32,000 nt of DNA from Promethearchaeota archaeon (GTDB lineage: Archaea > Asgardarchaeota > Lokiarchaeia > Sigyniarchaeales > Promethearchaeaceae). The translations under genes were made by a program, and so were the position numbers. Below the pieces are notes generated by a model. It was not told the DNA's origin. It did no database searches and saw only the letters and a program-made list of their open reading frames with translations. Below are positions 3,639 through 15,542 of this stretch, piece by piece. Each line of letters begins with the position of its first letter. Positions within the stretch are counted from its first letter, which is position 1. The stretch spans positions 167,590-199,589 of the forward strand of contig JAFGBS010000009.1 in the NCBI GenBank assembly GCA_016933055.1, in the 5' to 3' direction.

Positions 3639-3751
3639 GCAGGTGTAATCAAGTGGTTACGATGCTAGCCTGGAATGAACGGAATAATTCCGTAAAATCC
3701 CGGTTAGCTAGTGGGTGAAAGCCCGCATGGGTTCGAATCCCATCGCCTGCG
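3639..3751 (+). tRNA. tRNA-Ser(GGA) with a 30-nt intron at the canonical 37/38 position
   Basis: Hand-folded. Acceptor GCAGGTG/CGCCTGC (one G-U) with discriminator G. D arm ATCA-AGTGGTTA-CGAT. Anticodon stem CTAGC/GCTAG with loop C-T-GGA-A (anticodon 3672-3674). Intron 3676-3705. Long variable arm T-GGGT-GAAA-GCCC-GC (class II). T arm ATGGG-TTCGAAT-CCCAT. No encoded CCA. Confidence 0.8.
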
Positions 3752-3769
3752 CTCTTAAAAACAATAAAA

Positions 3770-6394: not shown

Positions 6395-7858
6395 TTAAAA
6401 TTGATCTAATTTTTTGGATTGGATCCAAATGTCCTCTAAAACGGGGGCAAACATTTTGATATGTTCATCCAATACTGAGCCCATCCCCGCTACTTGTAGT
6501 TCTCCATCTCCTTTGGAGACAACACAGACAATCATTTCCTCAAAATCTTTATTGAGAGCCCAAACCGTGCCGCGGGGGAAATATCGCAAGTCAACATTGG
6601 TCATTTCCTTTAATGTGTCCACTTTTCCTTTATCAGCAGAACTATTCAAATCAAAATCGGTAGAGATACGAACATTGATACGGGACTTTACTTTTGAGAG
6701 TGCTGTAAAATCAATATCTTTGATCGTGGGACAAATTACATATAACCGCATCTTAACCATGGAAAATGCCTCGTTTATCTGCGCTTTCATAGCTTCTGGT
6801 GATCTTATGAACCATACATCCTTAAAAGTCATCATAGAGGCTGCTTTAGAACGTTCCCAAAATTCCTGCATAGTTTTTTCTGCCAGATCCAATTGTCGGA
6901 CAACTGACATCATGGTATCTTCATCCAGTGTTTCCATTACTTCCTTTTGGAATTGCCCTTTTAATTCATTAATTCCTTTTTGAATAGAATTATTCACTTC
7001 AGTGACGCGTTTTTCTAAATCTCCTAATGTCTCTTCTAATCCTGCTTCGATATTGGTGAAAGAATCTCCTATTCCTGAACTTATCTCTCCAGCTGTATCC
7101 GTAATACTTCCTAATTGCTCAATAACTTGATCTAAGGTGTCTTGTGTAGTTTGGATTACCTTATCTCGGAAGTACCCTGCCATTTCTTCAAATTGGTCCT
7201 TAATAATACGTGAAACTATCTTTTCTGCAAAACTTGACAAGGCTCCCACTCGGAATTGCTTCTCGAATGCTTGCGAGATTTCAGATTTTATCGTTTCCAA
7301 TCGAGATTGCATTCGTCCGAATTCCATTTCAATATCTGGGGGAACTACTTCCTTAAGATTCAAAATAAATAATTTTAAATCATGGAATTTTTGAACCCCT
7401 TTCATTTGATTTTCAAATTTTGAGAGCTGGTCTTTCATTTTCACGGGGAGGGTTTCCTTCATTTCACGAATAAATTCCACATATTCTTGAAATTTGTCTA
7501 AGGATGCAATAGATTTCTCCATCCCGATGAACCTTCCCTCTAAAGCCGTAGGAGCTGCACTCTTCAATCCAGTAATAGATTCCTTAAATTGATGTATTTG
7601 TTTCATTAATGCAGCATATGGGGGTAATGCGGAATAATGGATAGTTTTTCCTGGTACTTCTCTTACCAATCCTTTTTCTACCAAATCTTTCGCGATTTCT
7701 TGCGCCCGTACATCATCTACTCCACCTAAAAGTCCCATTTCACCGGCACTAACTGGTCCTCTTCCAGTGATCCGAAAATAAACCTCTATTTCGTCTGGAG
7801 CTAATCCGATTAATTCGAGGACTTCTTGAGTAGATTTAAACTCTTGTTCACTTGACAT
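6395..7858 (-). CDS. TrmB-type winged-HTH protein with a long central coiled-coil insert and a TrmB-C/PLD-like C-terminal domain
   Basis: The N-terminus VLELIGLAPDEIEVYFRITGRGPVSAGEMGLLGGVDDVRAQEIAKDLVEKGLVREVPGKTIHYSALPP fits the TrmB HTH. Roughly residues 90-340 are heptad-like and E/K/Q-rich. The C-terminus VWFIRSPEAMKAQINEAFSMVKMRLYVICPT...INVRISTDFD resembles the TrmB middle/PLD-like domain. The start lies 8 nt after the stop of the upstream gene. Confidence 0.55.
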   Translation of the reverse strand: MSSEQEFKSTQEVLELIGLAPDEIEVYFRITGRGPVSAGEMGLLGGVDDVRAQEIAKDLVEKGLVREVPGKTIHYSALPPYAALMKQIHQFKESITGLKSAAPTALEGRFIGMEKSIASLDKFQEYVEFIREMKETLPVKMKDQLSKFENQMKGVQKFHDLKLFILNLKEVVPPDIEMEFGRMQSRLETIKSEISQAFEKQFRVGALSSFAEKIVSRIIKDQFEEMAGYFRDKVIQTTQDTLDQVIEQLGSITDTAGEISSGIGDSFTNIEAGLEETLGDLEKRVTEVNNSIQKGINELKGQFQKEVMETLDEDTMMSVVRQLDLAEKTMQEFWERSKAASMMTFKDVWFIRSPEAMKAQINEAFSMVKMRLYVICPTIKDIDFTALSKVKSRINVRISTDFDLNSSADKGKVDTLKEMTNVDLRYFPRGTVWALNKDFEEMIVCVVSKGDGELQVAGMGSVLDEHIKMFAPVLEDIWIQSKKLDQF

Positions 7859-7866
7859 GTTTTATT

Positions 7867-9015
7867 TCACTTCCCTTTTTTTTCGTGAAAATCATAATAT
7901 ACTTTTTCTAGATAATCCAAATGTTTGATCGCAGTCTCTTTTTTAATGATTCCCTCTTCTTGATCCTTACGGATATTCTCTAACATATATTCAGGGTAAA
8001 ATGGTCGAACTGCAACATCCGTGAGTAAAAATACCCACTCGACATTTTTGTTATCTTTAATTATTTTTAAAATATTGTCTTTCTCCATTACCGATAGCAA
8101 ATGAGCAACATCTAAGGCACCTTCATCTGTTCCTTTGGGAATCTTATTCAACGGGTAAGGTCTATCTCGGAATAGTGCTAAATAATCAAATTTATCTGGA
8201 TTAGTCAAATTGCGAGCAAGAACCAGATTATCTTCTTCTGTTGGCTTATAGTCTGCGAAAAATTTCTTCACTTCTGAAAGATATTTTTCGGCGAGATTTG
8301 GGTTTGGTAAGTTATTTTTAGCGTTATCGATGAGATCAAACGCTGGAGCTCGAAATATTGTAAAATCTGAGATGAGGAAAAGAAAAACTTCCGCTACTCC
8401 TTCAATCCAATCTTGTTTTACTAAACCACTTTTTACAAATGGATCTAGTGTGATATCAAGATTGGTAATGATTTTCTTTAATGACTCTTCCAGCAATGCT
8501 TGGAGTTGTTTCTTCGAGTAGGCACGTTCCCTAAGTAATTCTAGGATTTTTCTCCCTTTTTGACTATAATAAATCTGAGCTAGTAATTGCTCCTTCGTCA
8601 AATATTTCAATCTTTCCAATAAGAACAGTGCATTTTTCAGATACTGTTTAAGTTTCTTCACTACTTCATAATTTGCACTGATACTTGTACCGAGTTGGCG
8701 GAGGTATTTCAAGATCGCTTCATTTATATCTTTAATTACAGCCTCTCCGAACATATCTGGATCCTCACCCAATTCCAATATGAGATTAATCATAAAGGGG
8801 GTAGGGGAATCCATGCCTGTGAAGTAGGATGCAACGTTGGACTGAACTTTTTCTAGACGGACCAAGACATTTCCCGCTTCTGCAACACCAGTAATATGAG
8901 CATAAAATACTCGCATCATATCATCTAGATCCACTTTCAATTCTTCGGGATAATTCAACTGCACAATTAAACCATCAGTATCGGTCCATTTTGTAACTAC
9001 AAATCCTTTAGGCAT
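7867..9015 (-). CDS. Hypothetical cytoplasmic protein: N-terminal alpha/beta domain (roadblock/longin-like pattern) followed by helical, winged-helix-like segments
   Basis: 382 aa with no signal peptide or TM helix. The first ~110 aa (MPKGFVVTKWTDTDGLIVQLNYPE...NVLVRLEKVQSNVASYF...FMINLILELGEDPDMF...) alternate beta and alpha propensity. GRKILELLRERAYSKKQLQALLEES...LVKQDW and a second C-terminal segment look like wH units. Stop/start spacing to the upstream paralog is TAA-A-ATG. Confidence 0.5.
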   Translation of the reverse strand: MPKGFVVTKWTDTDGLIVQLNYPEELKVDLDDMMRVFYAHITGVAEAGNVLVRLEKVQSNVASYFTGMDSPTPFMINLILELGEDPDMFGEAVIKDINEAILKYLRQLGTSISANYEVVKKLKQYLKNALFLLERLKYLTKEQLLAQIYYSQKGRKILELLRERAYSKKQLQALLEESLKKIITNLDITLDPFVKSGLVKQDWIEGVAEVFLFLISDFTIFRAPAFDLIDNAKNNLPNPNLAEKYLSEVKKFFADYKPTEEDNLVLARNLTNPDKFDYLALFRDRPYPLNKIPKGTDEGALDVAHLLSVMEKDNILKIIKDNKNVEWVFLLTDVAVRPFYPEYMLENIRKDQEEGIIKKETAIKHLDYLEKVYYDFHEKKGK

Positions 9016-9016
9016 T

Positions 9017-10633
9017 TTATTTGCTCCCTTCTATTTTCTTTTCTGGTATAGTTTTTTCTTCTGGGGGTGACATATCTTCATAACCCGACATGTCTTTTTT
9101 TGGAGCAGCTTTCTCTGAAGGCTGCGATGGTGCTTTTCTACTAGACTTATCTAGTAGACGTTTTTCTTCTTCAAAAATATTTCTTCCAATTGTGTTGGAG
9201 TCTTTTGTTTGCAATGGCTTGGTAGCCCTTCCATGTCGGATTTTTCGTCGTAGTGACTTTACAGTTCTAACTTGTGCGGGGAATTTAAAAATACCTTCAT
9301 ACAATCCGATTCCTGTAGCTAAGGCAGCAAGCAATCCTGCAGAACTATAAATATAAGGTTGCAAGTTCGTTGGAGGTGGGTCTGGCAATATAACTATATA
9401 TGTTAGTTTGAGCACTACGTTATCTATGTAAATTCCAATCGGAGAATCTAATTCAAAATTATCCCCAATATACATTTGAATAGATACGGTAATATTTTCA
9501 TCCAAACTAATTAGTGATGTAACATTGTATCCATCAGGATTAGCAACTTGGTAAATATCTGTGGCGGCACTGATTTTGACCGTTTCATAGAGTTTCTTAT
9601 TACTGACAAACAATCGAAATTCCGAGTTTGGAGAAGCATCTGTTGGCCATGGGGTATCAATTTTGTACGAAAATTCAAAGGACGCGTCTCGAATCAAAAC
9701 ATTCGTGCTATTAAGTGAATTCCCGATTCCATCCCAAGAAGCTGTTGTTAATTGGTTCATTTTCTTTTGATACGTGAACGATAAACTCACATTTTTGATA
9801 TATATGTCATCAAAAAAGTCTTGATCGCTATTTCTATTATCCTCACAAAATATTCTGATCCCCACGGTTATTGTAAAGTTAAAATCATCCGTATTTAACA
9901 CTGAAGTAAGAAAGAATTTCAGATTTTCTTCGGTGACAGTTGTTATTAATGTATCCTCCATTTGGTCGAATGTCCCCGCACTATCTTTACCGAGATCAGA
10001 AGTTTGATTATATGCAATTTCATACACTTTTTGCTTTGGTAAATCTGAAATTAGTAAATAATACCTAATGTAATCGTAATCTGCCGCTTGATGGACAGCA
10101 TCTCCAGGAACTTCAATTCCTCCAAAATCAGGATTGTTTGCATGAACGGTTGCATTGATTACAGCACTTACGGATGCAGAAGTGATTGTATAATCACTCA
10201 TATTATTCGGCATGCTAACATTATAATCAAAATGAACAGAAGGTGATTGGTCTGAACGCTGACCATAAGTGTCTCCCCAGTAATGAGAAACATAAAATCC
10301 TTCTGAAGTCACATCATAATCATCTGGCAAATCTGGATAGGCTATATTGTTTACTGCTGTCCATGTATCAGAATTCAAAGGTGCATTTAGCTCCCATTCC
10401 AATTCCTCTCCAAGTAAATTATAAAGTGCCTCTCCTGAACTCGAACTAGTAGTAATATCAGATTCATCTCCTGCTATAGAAGTTGACCATTGAGAACTGA
10501 TAGGATCATCAAAACCACTTATCCAAACTACATCTTCATAAAGTATTTCCCGAGCAGAAACTAAAGGAATTGTGCTTAAAAGACTAATCACACATAAAAT
10601 GCCTATGCTGGTAATTAATAGGGATCTTTTCAT
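9017..10633 (-). CDS. Surface glycoprotein paralog 1: signal peptide, two jelly-roll/CBM-like modules, Pro-rich stalk, one TM helix, conserved basic cytoplasmic motif, low-complexity tail
   Basis: Signal peptide MKRSLLITSIGILCVISLLSTIPLVSA|RE. I counted 9 N-x-S/T sequons by hand. Stalk PDPPPTN, TM YIYSSAGLLAALATGIGLY, then EGIFKFPAQVRTVKSLRRKIRHGRATKPL and a 64-aa K/E/S/P-rich tail. The start overlaps the stop of paralog 2 (ATGA at 10630-10633). Confidence 0.8.
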   Translation of the reverse strand: MKRSLLITSIGILCVISLLSTIPLVSAREILYEDVVWISGFDDPISSQWSTSIAGDESDITTSSSSGEALYNLLGEELEWELNAPLNSDTWTAVNNIAYPDLPDDYDVTSEGFYVSHYWGDTYGQRSDQSPSVHFDYNVSMPNNMSDYTITSASVSAVINATVHANNPDFGGIEVPGDAVHQAADYDYIRYYLLISDLPKQKVYEIAYNQTSDLGKDSAGTFDQMEDTLITTVTEENLKFFLTSVLNTDDFNFTITVGIRIFCEDNRNSDQDFFDDIYIKNVSLSFTYQKKMNQLTTASWDGIGNSLNSTNVLIRDASFEFSYKIDTPWPTDASPNSEFRLFVSNKKLYETVKISAATDIYQVANPDGYNVTSLISLDENITVSIQMYIGDNFELDSPIGIYIDNVVLKLTYIVILPDPPPTNLQPYIYSSAGLLAALATGIGLYEGIFKFPAQVRTVKSLRRKIRHGRATKPLQTKDSNTIGRNIFEEEKRLLDKSSRKAPSQPSEKAAPKKDMSGYEDMSPPEEKTIPEKKIEGSK

Positions 10634-12396
10634 TGGTTTCCTTCCCCCTTTGAGGTAATATCAAGATTAGTATCGGTTTTTGACGTATCAATAGATTTAG
10701 GTGGTTTGGGTTCGTTAATTTTATCTGCTTCAACATAGGACTTTGAGGAAGCTTCTTTACTTGCAGCGGTACTTTTTGTAGAAGATGTTTTCAGTTTTTT
10801 CTGAAGTTGTGTTTTTTCTGAAGCGTGTATCTCATTACTAATTGAGCTAGCATCCTTTTTTGTTAAGGGTTTCGTGCCTCGCCCCGTCCGTATTCTTCTC
10901 TTTAAATTACGTATGTGACGAACTTGAGCTGGATATTTGAAATGGCCCTCATAAGCACCAAATCCTACCCCTAATAATACCACTCCTCCCATTAACCCGT
11001 AAAGATATGGCCAATTACTCTCAGGTGGAGGAGCTGGAGGTTCAATTAATACATAGGCTACCCACAATTGTACATTTGTTATAGAAACTGTAATATTATC
11101 TGCAAGCGCAAATTCATCTGCCAGATATAATTCAATTGAAAGTGTAATATTCACTTCCTTTTGAAGTAATTTCGTTACATTAAACCCTTCAGCCTTTGAT
11201 TCTTGAAATGAAAAAGTTCCAGAACTTAATTTAATGGTTTCGTTATGCATATTTCCATTAATTCGAATCCGTAACTCCGAATTTGGGGAGGACAGCTCCC
11301 AAGGTGTGTCGATCTTGAAATCGTATTTAACAATTCCATTTGTGATTTGTGCATTATCCTCAACGATGGAATTTCCTACTTGGCTCCAAGAAGCAGATGC
11401 GTCACGATTGATTATTTTTTCATAACTGAATGTTAAATTATAAGATTTAATTAGTAAATCATCCCATGAATCATCATCGTTTAAAAAATTATCTTCGCAC
11501 CATATTTTCATTCCCATGGTAAAGTTAAAATTTCGATTATCCGTGGAAAGAACATCAGAAAGAAAAAATATTAAACTCTCTTCTGGAACAGTGAACAAAT
11601 AAGTATCTGTTAAGCTATCATATGTTGTTGTCAAATATTCAGCATCCGAGGTATATACATCTTGTCCGAGAGGATAAGTATATTGTCCTGTTTGATACTG
11701 GGCGATTTCATATGATTTTGTATTGGTAAGATCAGAAACTAATGAATAAAATCTTACATAATCGTAAGTCGAGAATTGAGGTGTTGTCGCCTGTGATGGT
11801 GGAACATCCGCCACGTTAGTATAATCCCCATAAGCTTCAACTCCACCATTTCCATTACCGTAACCGTTATTGGCTTTAACAGTAGCGTTCACAATTACAG
11901 AGACATTTGCTGATGTAATTCTATAATCCGACATGTCAACAGGCATAGATATATTTCTAGTCCAATGAACTGAGGTTAATTGACCTGCTTCGGCTTCCGT
12001 CCAGAAATGTGTAACATACATACCTTCAGATGTGATATCATAATCGTCAGGGAATGTAGTTAATTCTGGATTTTGTACTACCGTCCAATTATCAGTATGT
12101 GGTGGATCTTCTGCGATCGAGAATGTGCGATAATCTCCCACTACCTTGAAATCAGCTTGCCCCGAAGTCGGGCTTTCTGCTATCAAATCAGTCAAATCTC
12201 CATTAACCGAACTTATCCATTCGGGATCAATCGGAGCAATAAAACCGGGATTAACCATCCATTCCTTATCGGTTCCATCTTGAGCATTTAGTAAAGAGAT
12301 ATGGGAAAAAAACGCAATAACGATAAAGAAAACTATTAATCGATAATATTTCTTTTTTATTGTAAACCCCTCTGTAGGTTTTGTTATCTTAATCAC
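10630..12396 (-). CDS. Surface glycoprotein paralog 2 (same architecture as 9017..10633)
   Basis: GTG start, hydrophobic signal/anchor YRLIVFFIVIAFFSHISLLNA|QDG, and 10 sequons by hand count. Blocks shared with paralog 1 include DDYDITSEGMYVTHFW, MSDYRITSANVSVIVNATV, YEIA, FFLSDVLSTD, NFNFT, WCEDN, LTFSYEK, KIDTPW and SPNSE. Stalk EPPAPPPESN, one TM helix, then YEGHFKYPAQVRHIRNLKRRIRTGRGTKPL and a 77-aa S/K/T-rich tail. Confidence 0.8.
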   Translation of the reverse strand: MIKITKPTEGFTIKKKYYRLIVFFIVIAFFSHISLLNAQDGTDKEWMVNPGFIAPIDPEWISSVNGDLTDLIAESPTSGQADFKVVGDYRTFSIAEDPPHTDNWTVVQNPELTTFPDDYDITSEGMYVTHFWTEAEAGQLTSVHWTRNISMPVDMSDYRITSANVSVIVNATVKANNGYGNGNGGVEAYGDYTNVADVPPSQATTPQFSTYDYVRFYSLVSDLTNTKSYEIAQYQTGQYTYPLGQDVYTSDAEYLTTTYDSLTDTYLFTVPEESLIFFLSDVLSTDNRNFNFTMGMKIWCEDNFLNDDDSWDDLLIKSYNLTFSYEKIINRDASASWSQVGNSIVEDNAQITNGIVKYDFKIDTPWELSSPNSELRIRINGNMHNETIKLSSGTFSFQESKAEGFNVTKLLQKEVNITLSIELYLADEFALADNITVSITNVQLWVAYVLIEPPAPPPESNWPYLYGLMGGVVLLGVGFGAYEGHFKYPAQVRHIRNLKRRIRTGRGTKPLTKKDASSISNEIHASEKTQLQKKLKTSSTKSTAASKEASSKSYVEADKINEPKPPKSIDTSKTDTNLDITSKGEGNQ

Positions 12397-12556: not shown

Positions 12557-13894
12557 TTACTCTACAGTGTTATGTTCCTTGTTCCGTGGATTGTACAAAA
12601 TTTTTGCCGTGTTCAATCGATCAGATTTATGTTCTCTAAATACCCCTCCGATCCTTACTGATAAATCTTCAAAACTATACTTGAATTTAATTAACTCCCA
12701 CAATTTCAAAGCTACGAACCAGAATCCGACTACGATCATTAAATACGAAATGTTCATGATGACATTGCCCATTACCGCATCAAATTCTCCACTTAACTCC
12801 CCAAAGCGTGAGTGAAAGATGTTACTCCACAAAATATTCCATAAAGCTTCTAAACAATAAATCGTCAACGAAAGCATTCCGAAGCGACGTATAAAGATAC
12901 TTCTTTTTACCGTTTTCTCACCAGATTCAAAATCAAATTTTCTGAAAAACCACGGGATCCACAATAACATCAGCCCGAGATTTATAAATGAGAGATCTGG
13001 GGGTATGTTCTTGTATCTAAATAAGTAAGTAATAATATCTGTAGAAATAGTAAATAGGTGATATCCTACTAGTAATAATCCAACAATGAGGAAAATCAAT
13101 CCCAGTTTTCTGCAATAGCGCTTAACGGCTTTATAAGGACGATCTTCCGCTAAAAAAATACCGATCACAATTCCAATAAGTGCATATCCTGCATAAGGCA
13201 GTACACAGTGAAGGGATCCTGCTATAAAAGAGAGGAAAAATGCTGGTACATAATACAATCTACCCATTTCCAAATAAGATAAAAATAAGGGATTTAACCA
13301 TTCCCATAGTGCCTTAGAAATGGTTAACCACACAATAGCAAATATTGTGAGATTACGTATATTTATGTTTTTTGATTCCTCAAACCGATCTTTCCGCCAC
13401 ATGAATAATAAAGTAAAACAGGAAATTAATCCTGAACTTGCAATCATAGATAACGCATCGGCTTTAAAGAAGATTTCAATCTCCGGCAGACTAAATGCTC
13501 TTTTCTGAATTGAACCAGTGAAAAGGGAGTACAATTGATGATCACCCGTTAGAGCAGGAGTTGCCATAACAAATAATCCCATGTAGACAAAATGAAAAAG
13601 CAAGATCAATAAATTATTTATGATAGATGGTCTCACACTTCTCCAGATAGAATTACCTGCATCTTTTCGGTGGTAAACGATATAAGAATTTGCAATACCA
13701 GTAATTAATGCGAATAATCCTGCCCAAGTGCCTAAATAAAGCATTGGGGCAAATATGACTAGGGGTGAACGTGGAAGATATTCTACTGCATTTCCTTCAC
13801 CGAGAAAAATTCCGAACACGATACCATGTGCAAAAACGACCCCAAAAATAGCTAAGCCTCGAATAAAATCGATACTTAACAGTCGTTTAGACAT
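12557..13894 (-). CDS. Multi-pass membrane protein, acyltransferase-3 / DUF1624 (HGSNAT-like) type
   Basis: The N-terminus MSKRLLSIDFIRGLAIFGVVFAHG matches the R..S.D..RG.A...V..H signature of membrane O-/N-acyltransferases. About 10 or more hydrophobic helices follow. Confidence 0.55.
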   Translation of the reverse strand: MSKRLLSIDFIRGLAIFGVVFAHGIVFGIFLGEGNAVEYLPRSPLVIFAPMLYLGTWAGLFALITGIANSYIVYHRKDAGNSIWRSVRPSIINNLLILLFHFVYMGLFVMATPALTGDHQLYSLFTGSIQKRAFSLPEIEIFFKADALSMIASSGLISCFTLLFMWRKDRFEESKNINIRNLTIFAIVWLTISKALWEWLNPLFLSYLEMGRLYYVPAFFLSFIAGSLHCVLPYAGYALIGIVIGIFLAEDRPYKAVKRYCRKLGLIFLIVGLLLVGYHLFTISTDIITYLFRYKNIPPDLSFINLGLMLLWIPWFFRKFDFESGEKTVKRSIFIRRFGMLSLTIYCLEALWNILWSNIFHSRFGELSGEFDAVMGNVIMNISYLMIVVGFWFVALKLWELIKFKYSFEDLSVRIGGVFREHKSDRLNTAKILYNPRNKEHNTVE

Positions 13895-13973: not shown

Positions 13974-15542
13974 TTAAAGCGTTTTTGTGGATTTCACGTT
14001 AAGCTCGTCTATATTTAGTCTCATTTTAGTTAACATATTCACTTGATCTGCTCGTGAGGGGATATTTAGTTTCTTTATTCTTGCACCTCTTCGGATTTTT
14101 CTTCTTATGCTACGTATTTTTCTCACATGGACAGGAAATTTAAGAATTCCTTGATACAAGCTAAATACAATAAAAAGTACTGCTATTCCTCCAGCAAGGC
14201 CTGCTGTCAAGGGTAAATAATTGGGTGGTGGTTCTGGAATCGGATCAGGGGTGAATATCATATAAGAGATCTTAAAATAGATGTTATCGATGAATATTGT
14301 GTAATTAAGCGTATTCTCAAATTCATCCGCAATATATAATTGGAATGAAACTGCCACGCTCAAGTTTGGAGTCAATAAATCCTTTAAAGCTCTTCCACTA
14401 AATTCAATTGTTTGATATATTGGAGTAAAACTATCCAATTTTACCGTTTCACTGTATTTTCTGCCATTAATAACGGTTTGAATCTCACTATTAGGGGATG
14501 CGGAAGTCCATAACGAATTGATTTTGTAATCAAAACTCAGTGACGCATTTGTGATAGTTGTGCAATTAACGACATCACCAAGTTGACTATATGAGATGGA
14601 ACTAAATTGGTCAATTTTTTTCTCATAGGTAAAGGATAAGCTGAAATTTTTGATACGTAGATCGTACCATGTATCTCTGTCGTAGGTAGGGTAATTATCT
14701 TCTGCATAAGCATTAATTTCGAGAATAATCGAGAAGTTTGTGTAATCGTATTGTAAAACTTTTGTGAGATAAAGGATTAGGAGATCTTGGTCAACAGGAA
14801 CTAATTCGGTATCGTTTAAATATACTCTTTCACCATACGTATTTGGTCCTACAGAACCCGATATGTCTTTCCCTAGGGTTGTGGTTTTATTATATGCAAT
14901 CCGATAATTTTCAATGTTGTTTGGATCTGTAACCGTGATTGAAAACCGTGCGTAATCTCCAACACCAATATATCCACTACTCAATAACACATCACCTGGT
15001 GTTTCTAAGTTTGTATCTCCACTCCCATTTACAATTGCACTAACTGAGGCTGATGTAATCACATAATCACTCATATTAACAGGAAGTTCAACTGAATGCT
15101 CCCATGTCATACTGGGGAAATTTCTGGTTTGGTTTCCCGTTACACCGAAATAATTTGTGACGGGTTCTTCTAGGTACTCATGCCCAATATAGCAGCCATT
15201 TTCATCAATACCATAGATATCGGGTAAAATAAACTCAGGATTGGGGATTTCAGTCCAATTATCGGAGATCGGCGGATTTGCATTGAAGACATAATCTCCC
15301 TCCTCACCAATTAAAACGAATGTGGCTTCTCCTCCTGTTATTTGTCCATCCAAATCTTGATCATCCCCTGAAGTTTCGATTACCCAGAAAGAAGAATTAT
15401 CGAATCCATTATTTCGTAACCATTCAATATCTGTGTAATAATCTTCTCGTGCTGATACAGAAACAATTTTAGAAGAGACAATCGAGGATAAAATCAAGAT
15501 TGATATAATTATTACTAATCTCTTGATCCACTTCATTTTCAA
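13974..15542 (-). CDS. Surface glycoprotein paralog 3 (more divergent member of the same family)
   Basis: The signal peptide ends VSVSA|RE, as in paralog 1. I counted 13 sequons by hand. Shared blocks are NMSDYVITSASVSAIVN, RIAYNKT, NFS, AEDN, RIKNFSLSFTYEKK, SPNSE and FIDNIYFKISY. Stalk PDPIPEPPPN, one TM helix, then YQGILKFPVHVRKIRSIRRKIRRGARIKKL and a 30-aa tail. Confidence 0.8.
   Translation of the reverse strand: MKMKWIKRLVIIISILILSSIVSSKIVSVSAREDYYTDIEWLRNNGFDNSSFWVIETSGDDQDLDGQITGGEATFVLIGEEGDYVFNANPPISDNWTEIPNPEFILPDIYGIDENGCYIGHEYLEEPVTNYFGVTGNQTRNFPSMTWEHSVELPVNMSDYVITSASVSAIVNGSGDTNLETPGDVLLSSGYIGVGDYARFSITVTDPNNIENYRIAYNKTTTLGKDISGSVGPNTYGERVYLNDTELVPVDQDLLILYLTKVLQYDYTNFSIILEINAYAEDNYPTYDRDTWYDLRIKNFSLSFTYEKKIDQFSSISYSQLGDVVNCTTITNASLSFDYKINSLWTSASPNSEIQTVINGRKYSETVKLDSFTPIYQTIEFSGRALKDLLTPNLSVAVSFQLYIADEFENTLNYTIFIDNIYFKISYMIFTPDPIPEPPPNYLPLTAGLAGGIAVLFIVFSLYQGILKFPVHVRKIRSIRRKIRRGARIKKLNIPSRADQVNMLTKMRLNIDELNVKSTKTL

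Follow-up and report, generated by a model that had tools for sequence, protein, structure and literature searches.

The window analysed here is a stretch of 32,000 nucleotides (nt) of a Promethearchaeota archaeon (GenBank assembly GCA_016933055.1, contig JAFGBS010000009.1, positions 167,590 to 199,589), which encodes three paralogous membrane proteins on the minus strand, P1 (538 amino acids, aa; 9017..10633), P2 (588 aa, GTG start; 10630..12396) and P3 (522 aa, TTG start; 13974..15542). Judged from their sequences, all three are predicted to be type I surface proteins with the N-terminus outside and the C-terminus inside the cell, and they belong to an uncharacterised protein family that appears restricted to Asgard archaea. 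Our preferred interpretation, which we hold with about as much confidence as doubt, is that they represent N-glycosylated, ligand-binding proteins of the Asgard cell surface, possibly coupled through their tails to cytoplasmic partners.

The open reading frames (ORFs) of P1 and P2 overlap by 4 nt, and BLASTP aligned 561 columns of their products, of which 40% are identical (E 2e-124). A previous sequence-only reading of this region had described the two as tandem paralogs with a series of collinear blocks, and the listed blocks are indeed present in the alignment. Its inventory was right for P1 and P2, whereas it had overlooked P3 as well as two conserved features, the cytoplasmic tail and the operon partners. 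In the all-against-all BLAST comparison of the window ORFs, P3 is 38% identical to P1 (E 2e-80) and 33% identical to P2. P1 itself matches 'hypothetical protein JW776_06260, Candidatus Lokiarchaeota' at 100% identity.

A word-index search yielded 82 homologs, and wherever the organism is named it is an Asgard archaeon (Loki, Hermod, Hod, Hel, Thor), bar one. This single case, P0077, is a partial protein of 844 aa on a 2.5-kb contig labelled 'Candidatus Neomarinimicrobiota bacterium', which is probably mis-binned because every other named relative is Asgard. An exhaustive search with a hidden Markov model (HMM) found 510 cluster representatives in a library that carries no taxonomy; 292 of them scored at E<=1e-30 and many are 1000-2000 aa long. 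Among GTDB species genomes, 122 relatives were detected, and the 80 listed ones all belong either to Promethearchaeota (among them Odin, Thor, Hod and Hermod) or to metagenome-assembled genomes (MAGs) named 'uncultured archaeon'. The longer members contain either additional Ig-like segments or a second complete ectodomain within the same ORF. Such two-ectodomain proteins comprise ~1100-1800 aa (e.g. L012 11535-15014 and L011 9821-15277; P0203-P0206), and each copy presumably retains a transmembrane helix and tail of its own, which would make them multi-pass proteins. The NCBI name 'LapA family protein' on one homolog could be discarded, since it goes back to a weak match of the transmembrane helix only (LapA_dom, E 0.0046). 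Literature searches found no prior description of the family or its gene cluster.

For the P1 ectodomain (aa 28-420), an AlphaFold2 (AF2) model was calculated from an alignment of 82 sequences. It reached a predicted local distance difference test (pLDDT) value of 93.4 and a predicted TM-score (pTM) of 0.86, and it shows strands throughout and a single helix, i.e. a confidently predicted, nearly all-beta ectodomain and not a non-beta structure of low confidence. The model comprises a large N-terminal beta-sandwich module (aa 28-293; 9755..10552, minus strand) of ~265 aa, with ~15 strands and the one helix (strands E2-E265 in ectodomain numbering), which carries 6 N-x-S/T sequons and ends in the strand IYIKNVSLSFTY. 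It is followed by a smaller C-terminal beta module (aa 294-415; 9389..9754, minus strand) of ~125 aa with ~6 strands (E270-E388), which carries 3 sequons and ends in the strand IYIDNVVLKLTY.

Foldseek comparison of the model with the PDB returned a wide range of proteins with tandem beta-sandwich or jelly-roll folds, namely 4h3w (E 9e-6), BcsB, PNGase F-type enzymes, allantoicase and PHM, as well as neuropilin b1b2, malectin-like FER/ANX, carbohydrate-binding modules (CBMs), xanthan lyase and viral jelly-roll capsid proteins; matches in BFVD were CBM-cenC-type proteins and phage tail proteins. All these matches are weak (TM-score ~0.2, <10% identity; probability up to 0.99-1.0). The designation as a CBM-like beta-sandwich, which had been proposed before, is consequently borne out at the level of the fold only, and on the basis of the model it should be read as a fold label and not as family membership. 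With CBM or galactose-binding-like jelly-rolls (CenC-type CBMs, PNGase F, the allantoicase repeats and the carbohydrate-binding domains of BcsB) the ectodomain shares the all-beta sandwich, the two tandem modules, the terminal strand pattern ..I.I(D/K)N(V/I).L...Y and an acidic loop before it. However, there is no sequence relationship to these proteins, and the unusually large N module, the membrane anchor and the conserved cytoplasmic tail set the window family apart. No Pfam or NCBIfam match was obtained for the ectodomains of P1-P3, a PDB sequence search with the family profile gave zero matches, and no ectodomain, CBM, lectin or catalytic family recurred when the 82 homologs were compared with Pfam. 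Hence, no named family of known function claims P1-P3 in these searches. The ectodomains contain the conserved acidic motifs CEDN..D.D and SPNSE, which would be compatible with a putative metal site.

The two modules had been regarded as products of an internal duplication whose halves end in similar strands. This view could be maintained only in part. P1-P3 gave no BLAST self-match, and in the comparison of N-half and C-half profiles only the last ~32 columns aligned (E 0.0065 and 0.008, hhalign probability ~5%; 82 or 235 sequences), with the hairpin consensus ITLGIxIxCEDNxxxDxDxWxxLxIKSxNLTFTY in the N half versus ITLSIQVYLADxFxLxxxITISIDNVxLxISY in the C half. The score of this hairpin was 22.6, compared to 13.3 +/- 2.3 in column shuffles, none of which reached it (0/60); the resemblance is therefore real. 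It is confined to the last beta-hairpin, because shuffles that preserve blocks of 10 columns reached the same score in 5/60 trials. The similar terminal strands are thus confirmed as a local feature, whereas two duplicated modules are not supported, since the modules are unequal (~265 vs ~125 aa), only 32 terminal columns are alike and a self-match is missing.

The sequon counts given earlier for P1 and P2, 9 and 10, are exact, and P3 contains 13. All of these sites are situated between signal peptide and transmembrane helix, with zero sequons in the transmembrane and tail portions of the three proteins. Composition-preserving shuffles gave an expectation of 5.2-5.6 sequons per ectodomain (p = 0.06, 0.04 and 0.0008 for P1, P2 and P3), i.e. 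the excess per protein is modest. Sequon density amounts to 1.7-2.5 per 100 aa in P1-P3 compared to 0-1.1 (mostly <0.7) in the other 24 window proteins, and the three ectodomains contain 32 N-x-S/T motifs compared to 12 of the reversed motif [ST]-x-N. At the family level, 64 ectodomains contain 854 sequons, whereas shuffles predict 416 and the reversed motif occurs 370 times; the enrichment is thus approximately twofold, with values above expectation in 64/64 proteins. Moreover, several P1 sequon columns are kept among 78 homologs, N160 (NAT) in 99%, N252 (NFT) in 83%, N380 (NIT) in 78%, N209 in 72%, column 283 in 69% and N138 in 60%, and this positional conservation stands though the family is only ~40% identical. 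The previously noticed occurrence of sequons at aligned positions thus extends to the whole family. For the Asgard archaeon P. syntrophicum, experiments have demonstrated N-glycosylation at N-x-S/T sites (PMC11284389). Given this precedent, and given that the sequons exceed expectation, occur solely in the ectodomain and keep their positions, glycosylation is well motivated, and the position-conserved sites are most likely N-glycosylated.

The topology of P1 starts with a predicted signal peptide (aa 1-27; 10553..10633, minus strand), an N-terminal hydrophobic segment (KD 2.27) ending in ...PLVSA/RE, where the slash marks an A-x-A-like site at which we infer cleavage. The corresponding ends are LNA/QD in P2 and VSA/RE in P3. 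The ectodomains of P1-P3 are strongly acidic, with a net charge of -38 to -42 (P1 -42), and the tails are basic, with +10 to +14 (+10 for motif plus tail of P1, aa 450-538). Between the two lie a Pro-rich stalk, ILPDPPPTNLQP, and the transmembrane helix (aa 428-448), together at 9290..9388 on the minus strand, the helix being the best hydrophobic 21-residue window before the basic motif. According to the conservation profile, the stalk and transmembrane region is kept across the family; the helix is rich in Gly and Ala and occurs once per paralog. The conservation profile also delimits a cytoplasmic juxtamembrane motif, KFPAQVRTVKSLRRKIRHGRATKP (9215..9286, minus strand), with the consensus K[YF]PxxVRK[VI]RK...; the basic segment directly after the P1 helix is LYEGIFKFPAQVRTVKSLRRKIRHGRATKP, and the family consensus reads lYq...K[YF]P.[PQ]VRKVRK.RK. 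The remainder of the P1 tail (9020..9214, minus strand) is of low complexity, basic and poorly conserved. On the same strand, helix and motif are found at 10951-11013 and 10867-10938 in P2 and at 14157-14219 and 14070-14141 in P3.

The tail motif is found beyond the family itself. Gene context was evaluated in 80 loci of family members, and the pattern K[YF]P..[VI]R occurred there at 133 ORF positions, of which 126 fall within the family and 6 within giant proteins encoded in the same clusters. These giant surface proteins (1236-1365 aa; L006 15356-19063, L060 5351-9445, L069 16853-20911 and L017 11618-15367) are extremely rich in sequons. When the family profile was compared with one of them by hhalign, only transmembrane helix plus tail aligned (119 columns, probability 99%, E 2.5e-18), and similarity between the giant-protein ectodomains and those of the family was undetectable by this method. 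The cytoplasmic tail hence appears to be a portable module common to different ectodomains.

In these loci, 1-5 family genes stand in tandem, and the arrays are regularly accompanied by genes for two cytoplasmic proteins that we call WH382 and TrmB487 according to the window copies (7867..9015 and 6395..7858, both minus strand). A WH382 homolog adjoins the ectodomain family in 59/80 loci and a TrmB487 homolog in 53/80, and most loci without them are truncated contigs. In the reciprocal check, which started from three WH382 homologs, a TrmB-like gene was present downstream and an abutting gene with the family transmembrane and tail motif upstream in 3/3 cases; the upstream gene was confirmed as a family member by HMM in 2/3. 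In the window, WH382 starts 1 nt after the P1 stop, and the gaps along P2, P1, WH382 and TrmB487 are -4, +1 and +8 nt, which makes these genes one operon. This arrangement, in which the pair lies downstream of a co-directional array, is one of two layouts and contains WH382 copies that are 56-65% identical; in the other one, a paralogous pair (~32% identical) is situated divergently upstream of the array. The tail signature follows the cluster layout (YQKvLKYPKPVRKVRKYRKTL vs YQTHFKYPPxVRKIRKLRKKIRKGKK). The array subfamilies keep their order across Asgard classes, e.g. BBCD or AACD, and subfamilies C and D are each 66-68% identical internally over 17 loci; the conserved C-D pair is often fused into one two-ectodomain ORF. 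P1-P3 belong to lineage-specific subfamilies common to two close relatives.

Homologs of WH382 (395 matches) share 58-65% identity across the Loki, Hod, Hermod, Odin, Thor and Heimdall lineages, and WH382 has no Pfam domain, including no match to NPR2/NPR3. Its AF2 model is of moderate quality (pLDDT 74.6, pTM 0.39) and shows the order beta-beta-alpha-beta-beta-beta-alpha in aa 1-106, followed by helical and winged-helix parts. Over the full length, Foldseek matched it to chains of GATOR1 complexes, 9o5a_H (E 2.5e-4, probability 1.0, TM-score 0.28), 7t3b_C and 9v0j_A, which we take to be NPRL2/NPRL3 by chain length alone. Matches restricted to the longin part comprise the Lokiarchaeal Roadblock-Longin protein 8yqg (TMt 0.56), Lst4, FLCN, SMCR8/C9orf72 and TRAPP subunits, and the TMt values of 0.55-0.56 to Lst4 and Lokiarchaeal longin domains identify the N-terminal part as a longin; the winged-helix part matches ArsR/SmtB-type domains. 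The model hence assigns WH382 an NPRL2/3-like architecture of longin plus winged helix. It shares with the GATOR1 subunits NPRL2/NPRL3, FLCN and SMCR8 the N-terminal longin followed by a helical and winged-helix C-terminal part, but differs in the missing Pfam match, in the moderate model confidence, in the lack of an evident DEPDC5-like partner and in a gene context, beside surface proteins and a TrmB-like gene, for which no described GATOR1 setting offers a parallel. Earlier work has reported NPRL2-like longin proteins from Asgard archaea (bioRxiv 10.1101/2020.10.19.343400; PMC12290439), and a description of such a protein in a surface-protein/TrmB gene context was not found in the literature. 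Since Asgard longin, Roadblock and GTPase genes are reported to lie generally outside informative operons (PMC10933270), the near-obligate adjacency of WH382 stands out, and the locus is one of few places where the function of an Asgard longin-type protein could be tested directly.

TrmB487 starts with a TrmB-type winged helix-turn-helix (HTH) plus dimerisation helix, matches apolipoprotein-like helical repeats in its middle region and has a conserved domain at its C-terminus. It scored 29.0 bits against Pfam PF01978 (cut-off 25.6), and its N-terminal part matches NCBIfam TrmB (aa 11-133) as well as TrmBL2 and TrmB in the PDB. The matches to TrmB are confined to this part, and the TrmB sugar-binding C-terminal domain was not found in TrmB487. 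Elsewhere the TrmB-like partner is longer, ~640-750 aa (L012 4386-6557, minus strand; L078 6215-8404, minus strand; L010 14496-16445, plus strand), and carries at its C-terminus a conserved extension with the final residues ...FW(K/R)(Q/S)KLN(L/I); copies of the divergent layout have in addition an N-terminal Cys/His zinc-ribbon-like segment. The window protein (487 aa) contains neither of these two elements.

Taken as a mechanism, our preferred interpretation assumes that P1-P3 would be exported by the Sec pathway and become single-pass surface proteins with N-out and C-in orientation. The ectodomain would form a rigid, very acidic all-beta structure, in which a smaller beta module follows a large sandwich of CBM- or jelly-roll-like type, and it most likely binds an extracellular ligand, by analogy of fold a glycan or the surface of another cell. 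The ectodomains would probably be part of the non-crystalline protein coat that has been observed on S-layer-less Asgard cells. The tail could serve as docking site for the pair of longin plus winged-helix protein and TrmB-like protein, with a role in sorting, anchoring or signalling to transcription. We infer this docking function because the tail is common to unrelated giant surface proteins and because its genes form an operon with those of WH382 and TrmB487, which together suggests that the tail docks the pair. A receptor-like use of the scaffold is indicated by two homologs that carry cytoplasmic Toll/interleukin-1 receptor (TIR) domains. The surface of L. ossiferum lacks an S-layer but shows unordered densities and a large number of proteins (PMC9834061), and the family members are candidates for the unordered densities seen by cryo-electron tomography on S-layer-less cells. 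In cultured Asgard archaea without S-layer, surface proteins are thought to mediate the cell-cell contacts of eukaryogenesis models, and the present family, which occurs across Asgard lineages and is multi-copy, exported and sequon-rich, provides a concrete candidate. Even without a real coupling of the tail, it would be a new, well-defined archaeal surface protein family of predicted glycoproteins with a confident fold model.

Several points speak against this interpretation. It rests on sequence and model evidence. There is no sequence link to CBM or lectin families and the fold matches are weak, hence ligand binding is proposed by fold analogy only. Glycosylation in P. syntrophicum is infrequent and dominated by one solute-binding protein (PMC11284389), and the near-invariant NAT motif could be structural instead of a glycosylation site. 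Moreover, the polybasic juxtamembrane stretch could be a mere positive-inside topology signal, and the TrmB-like protein may just regulate the array without any physical contact to the tails.

The strongest alternative, although we consider it unlikely, is a different one: the proteins could form a purely structural glycocalyx coat, which replaces the S-layer and protects or hydrates the membrane, with the TrmB-like protein acting only as regulator and the tail only as stop-transfer and positive-inside signal. In their acidity and their richness in sequons the ectodomains resemble archaeal envelope glycoproteins, and in most loci the regulator pair is found divergently upstream of the array, the classic layout of a regulator and its target. 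With archaeal envelope and S-layer glycoproteins the family also has in common the Sec signal peptide, the C-terminal transmembrane anchor and a plausible function as coat. However, P1-P3 match no S-layer family in Pfam or NCBIfam, cultured Asgard cells show no lattice, the window family occurs in multi-paralog arrays, and its cytoplasmic motif and operon partners are absent from known S-layer proteins. The conserved, ordered subfamilies also point to distinct roles and away from a bulk coat. Furthermore, the tail motif K[YF]P..VRK is kept well beyond its charge, as part of a conserved segment of ~60-120 columns that is common to different ectodomains, and WH382, with 58-65% identity, is more conserved than the ectodomains (~40%) and its fold is not of a DNA-binding regulator type.

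A further-reaching possibility, which we put forward tentatively and regard as doubtful, is that the ectodomain family, the giants with the same anchor, WH382 and the TrmB-like protein constitute one Asgard-specific transmembrane system, in which the KYPxxVRKVRK tail would recruit a GATOR1/FLCN-type longin protein and thereby provide a prokaryotic receptor-adaptor link between the cell surface and the GTPase, cytoskeleton or transcription machinery. If true, this link would be of the kind needed for the protrusion-mediated cell-cell contact in eukaryogenesis models. The proposal draws on a pair of gelsolin-domain coiled-coil proteins in sister clusters and on Roadblock and sometimes Rag/Arf-like GTPase genes in other lineages. 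In sister clusters of the divergent layout, the array is followed by two ~350-aa proteins (e.g. L022 19289-20347, plus strand), each with a match to an Asgard gelsolin-like domain (PDB 7c2f_B, E 3.2e-4) in the N-terminal ~100 aa and a long coiled coil behind it. Tandem pairs were seen in L006, L012, L020, L042 and L072, and the ~350-aa family occurs in 19 loci and not in the window. These gelsolin-like neighbours hint at a link of the surface-protein cluster to actin regulation. Just upstream of the co-directional cluster of ectodomain, WH382 and TrmB-like genes, other lineages encode an SDR and a Roadblock/LC7 protein, the latter with 92-98% identity between MAGs (L082 1448-3150, L081 3899-4360, as well as L010, L028, L026, L035, L066 and L069), and a Rag/Arf-like GTPase is found upstream in L082 and L010, too. 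The window is without the Roadblock, SDR or Rag/Arf-like GTPase neighbours.

Quite improbable in our opinion is that the proteins function as transmembrane sensors, in which the ligand would alter the tail-bound WH382 to release or activate the TrmB-like DNA-binding protein, a one-step route of signalling from outside the cell to transcription, with the TIR-tailed homologs as immune-type variants. Such a function is compatible with the architecture of ectodomain, transmembrane helix and conserved tail and with the tight operon that includes a TrmB-type winged-HTH protein, and longin domains of the NPRL2 type frequently occur in Asgard archaea as fusions with two-component signalling domains (Liu et al., bioRxiv 10.1101/2020.10.19.343400). 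In P0064 (aa 579-700) and P0070 (aa 630-750), a C-terminal cytoplasmic TIR_2 domain (E ~1e-16) replaces the end of the tail, which represents a TLR-like architecture in an archaeon. Nevertheless, such fusions are rare, as only 2/82 aligned family members carry one and Pfam scans of long-tailed homologs found no other domains. Pfam detected neither a TIR domain in P1-P3 nor any enzymatic or known signalling domain in their tails, and 3-5 conserved paralogs per single regulator pair would be unusual for sensors. P1-P3 resemble lectin-like single-pass receptors of eukaryotes and bacteria (the receptor kinases FER/ANX, neuropilin, TIR receptors) in the tandem beta-sandwich, the one transmembrane helix and the cytoplasmic tail, but the likeness is at the fold level and a kinase or TIR domain is missing.

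Least likely, and in our view very improbable, is a membrane-anchored extracellular enzyme or polysaccharide-handling subunit (PNGase-, lyase- or BcsB-like) acting on glycans: PNGase F-type enzymes and xanthan lyase are among the Foldseek matches, as is BcsB, a protein with a C-terminal membrane anchor and jelly-roll carbohydrate-binding domains, and a possibly acyltransferase-3-like membrane protein is encoded inside the array of the window lineage, but all these matches are of the generic fold level described above, the model contains only one helix and no alpha/beta (flavodoxin-like) domain as in BcsB, no glycosyltransferase or synthase gene was found in the cluster and no GT2 gene in the window, and none of the 82 members matched a catalytic-family HMM.

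The latter membrane protein, a multi-pass protein of 445 aa (12557..13894, minus strand), is located between P2 and P3. It gave a weak full-length match to Acyl_transf_3 (E 0.21) and is thus possibly acyltransferase-3-like. Of the 80 loci, just the closely related L001 and L003 contain it, i.e. it is a lineage-specific insertion in the array, and it could modify glycans or the adjoining proteins.

The flanks of the window contain housekeeping genes for pterin biosynthesis, ribosomal proteins, the CODH/ACS delta subunit and archaeal lipid synthesis, and a mobile or viral origin was rejected for this reason. A tRNA-Gly(CCC) gene is situated at 3639-3752 on the plus strand; it spans 113 nt in the Rfam match and 89 nt according to ARAGORN, and it bears an intron because the matched span is longer than the 71-position model. 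Introns in tRNA genes are common in archaea. Together with the identity of P1 to the Lokiarchaeota protein, this tRNA gene and the housekeeping flanks show that the window is chromosomal Asgard DNA. AT-rich, TATA-like stretches are present upstream of P2 and P3.

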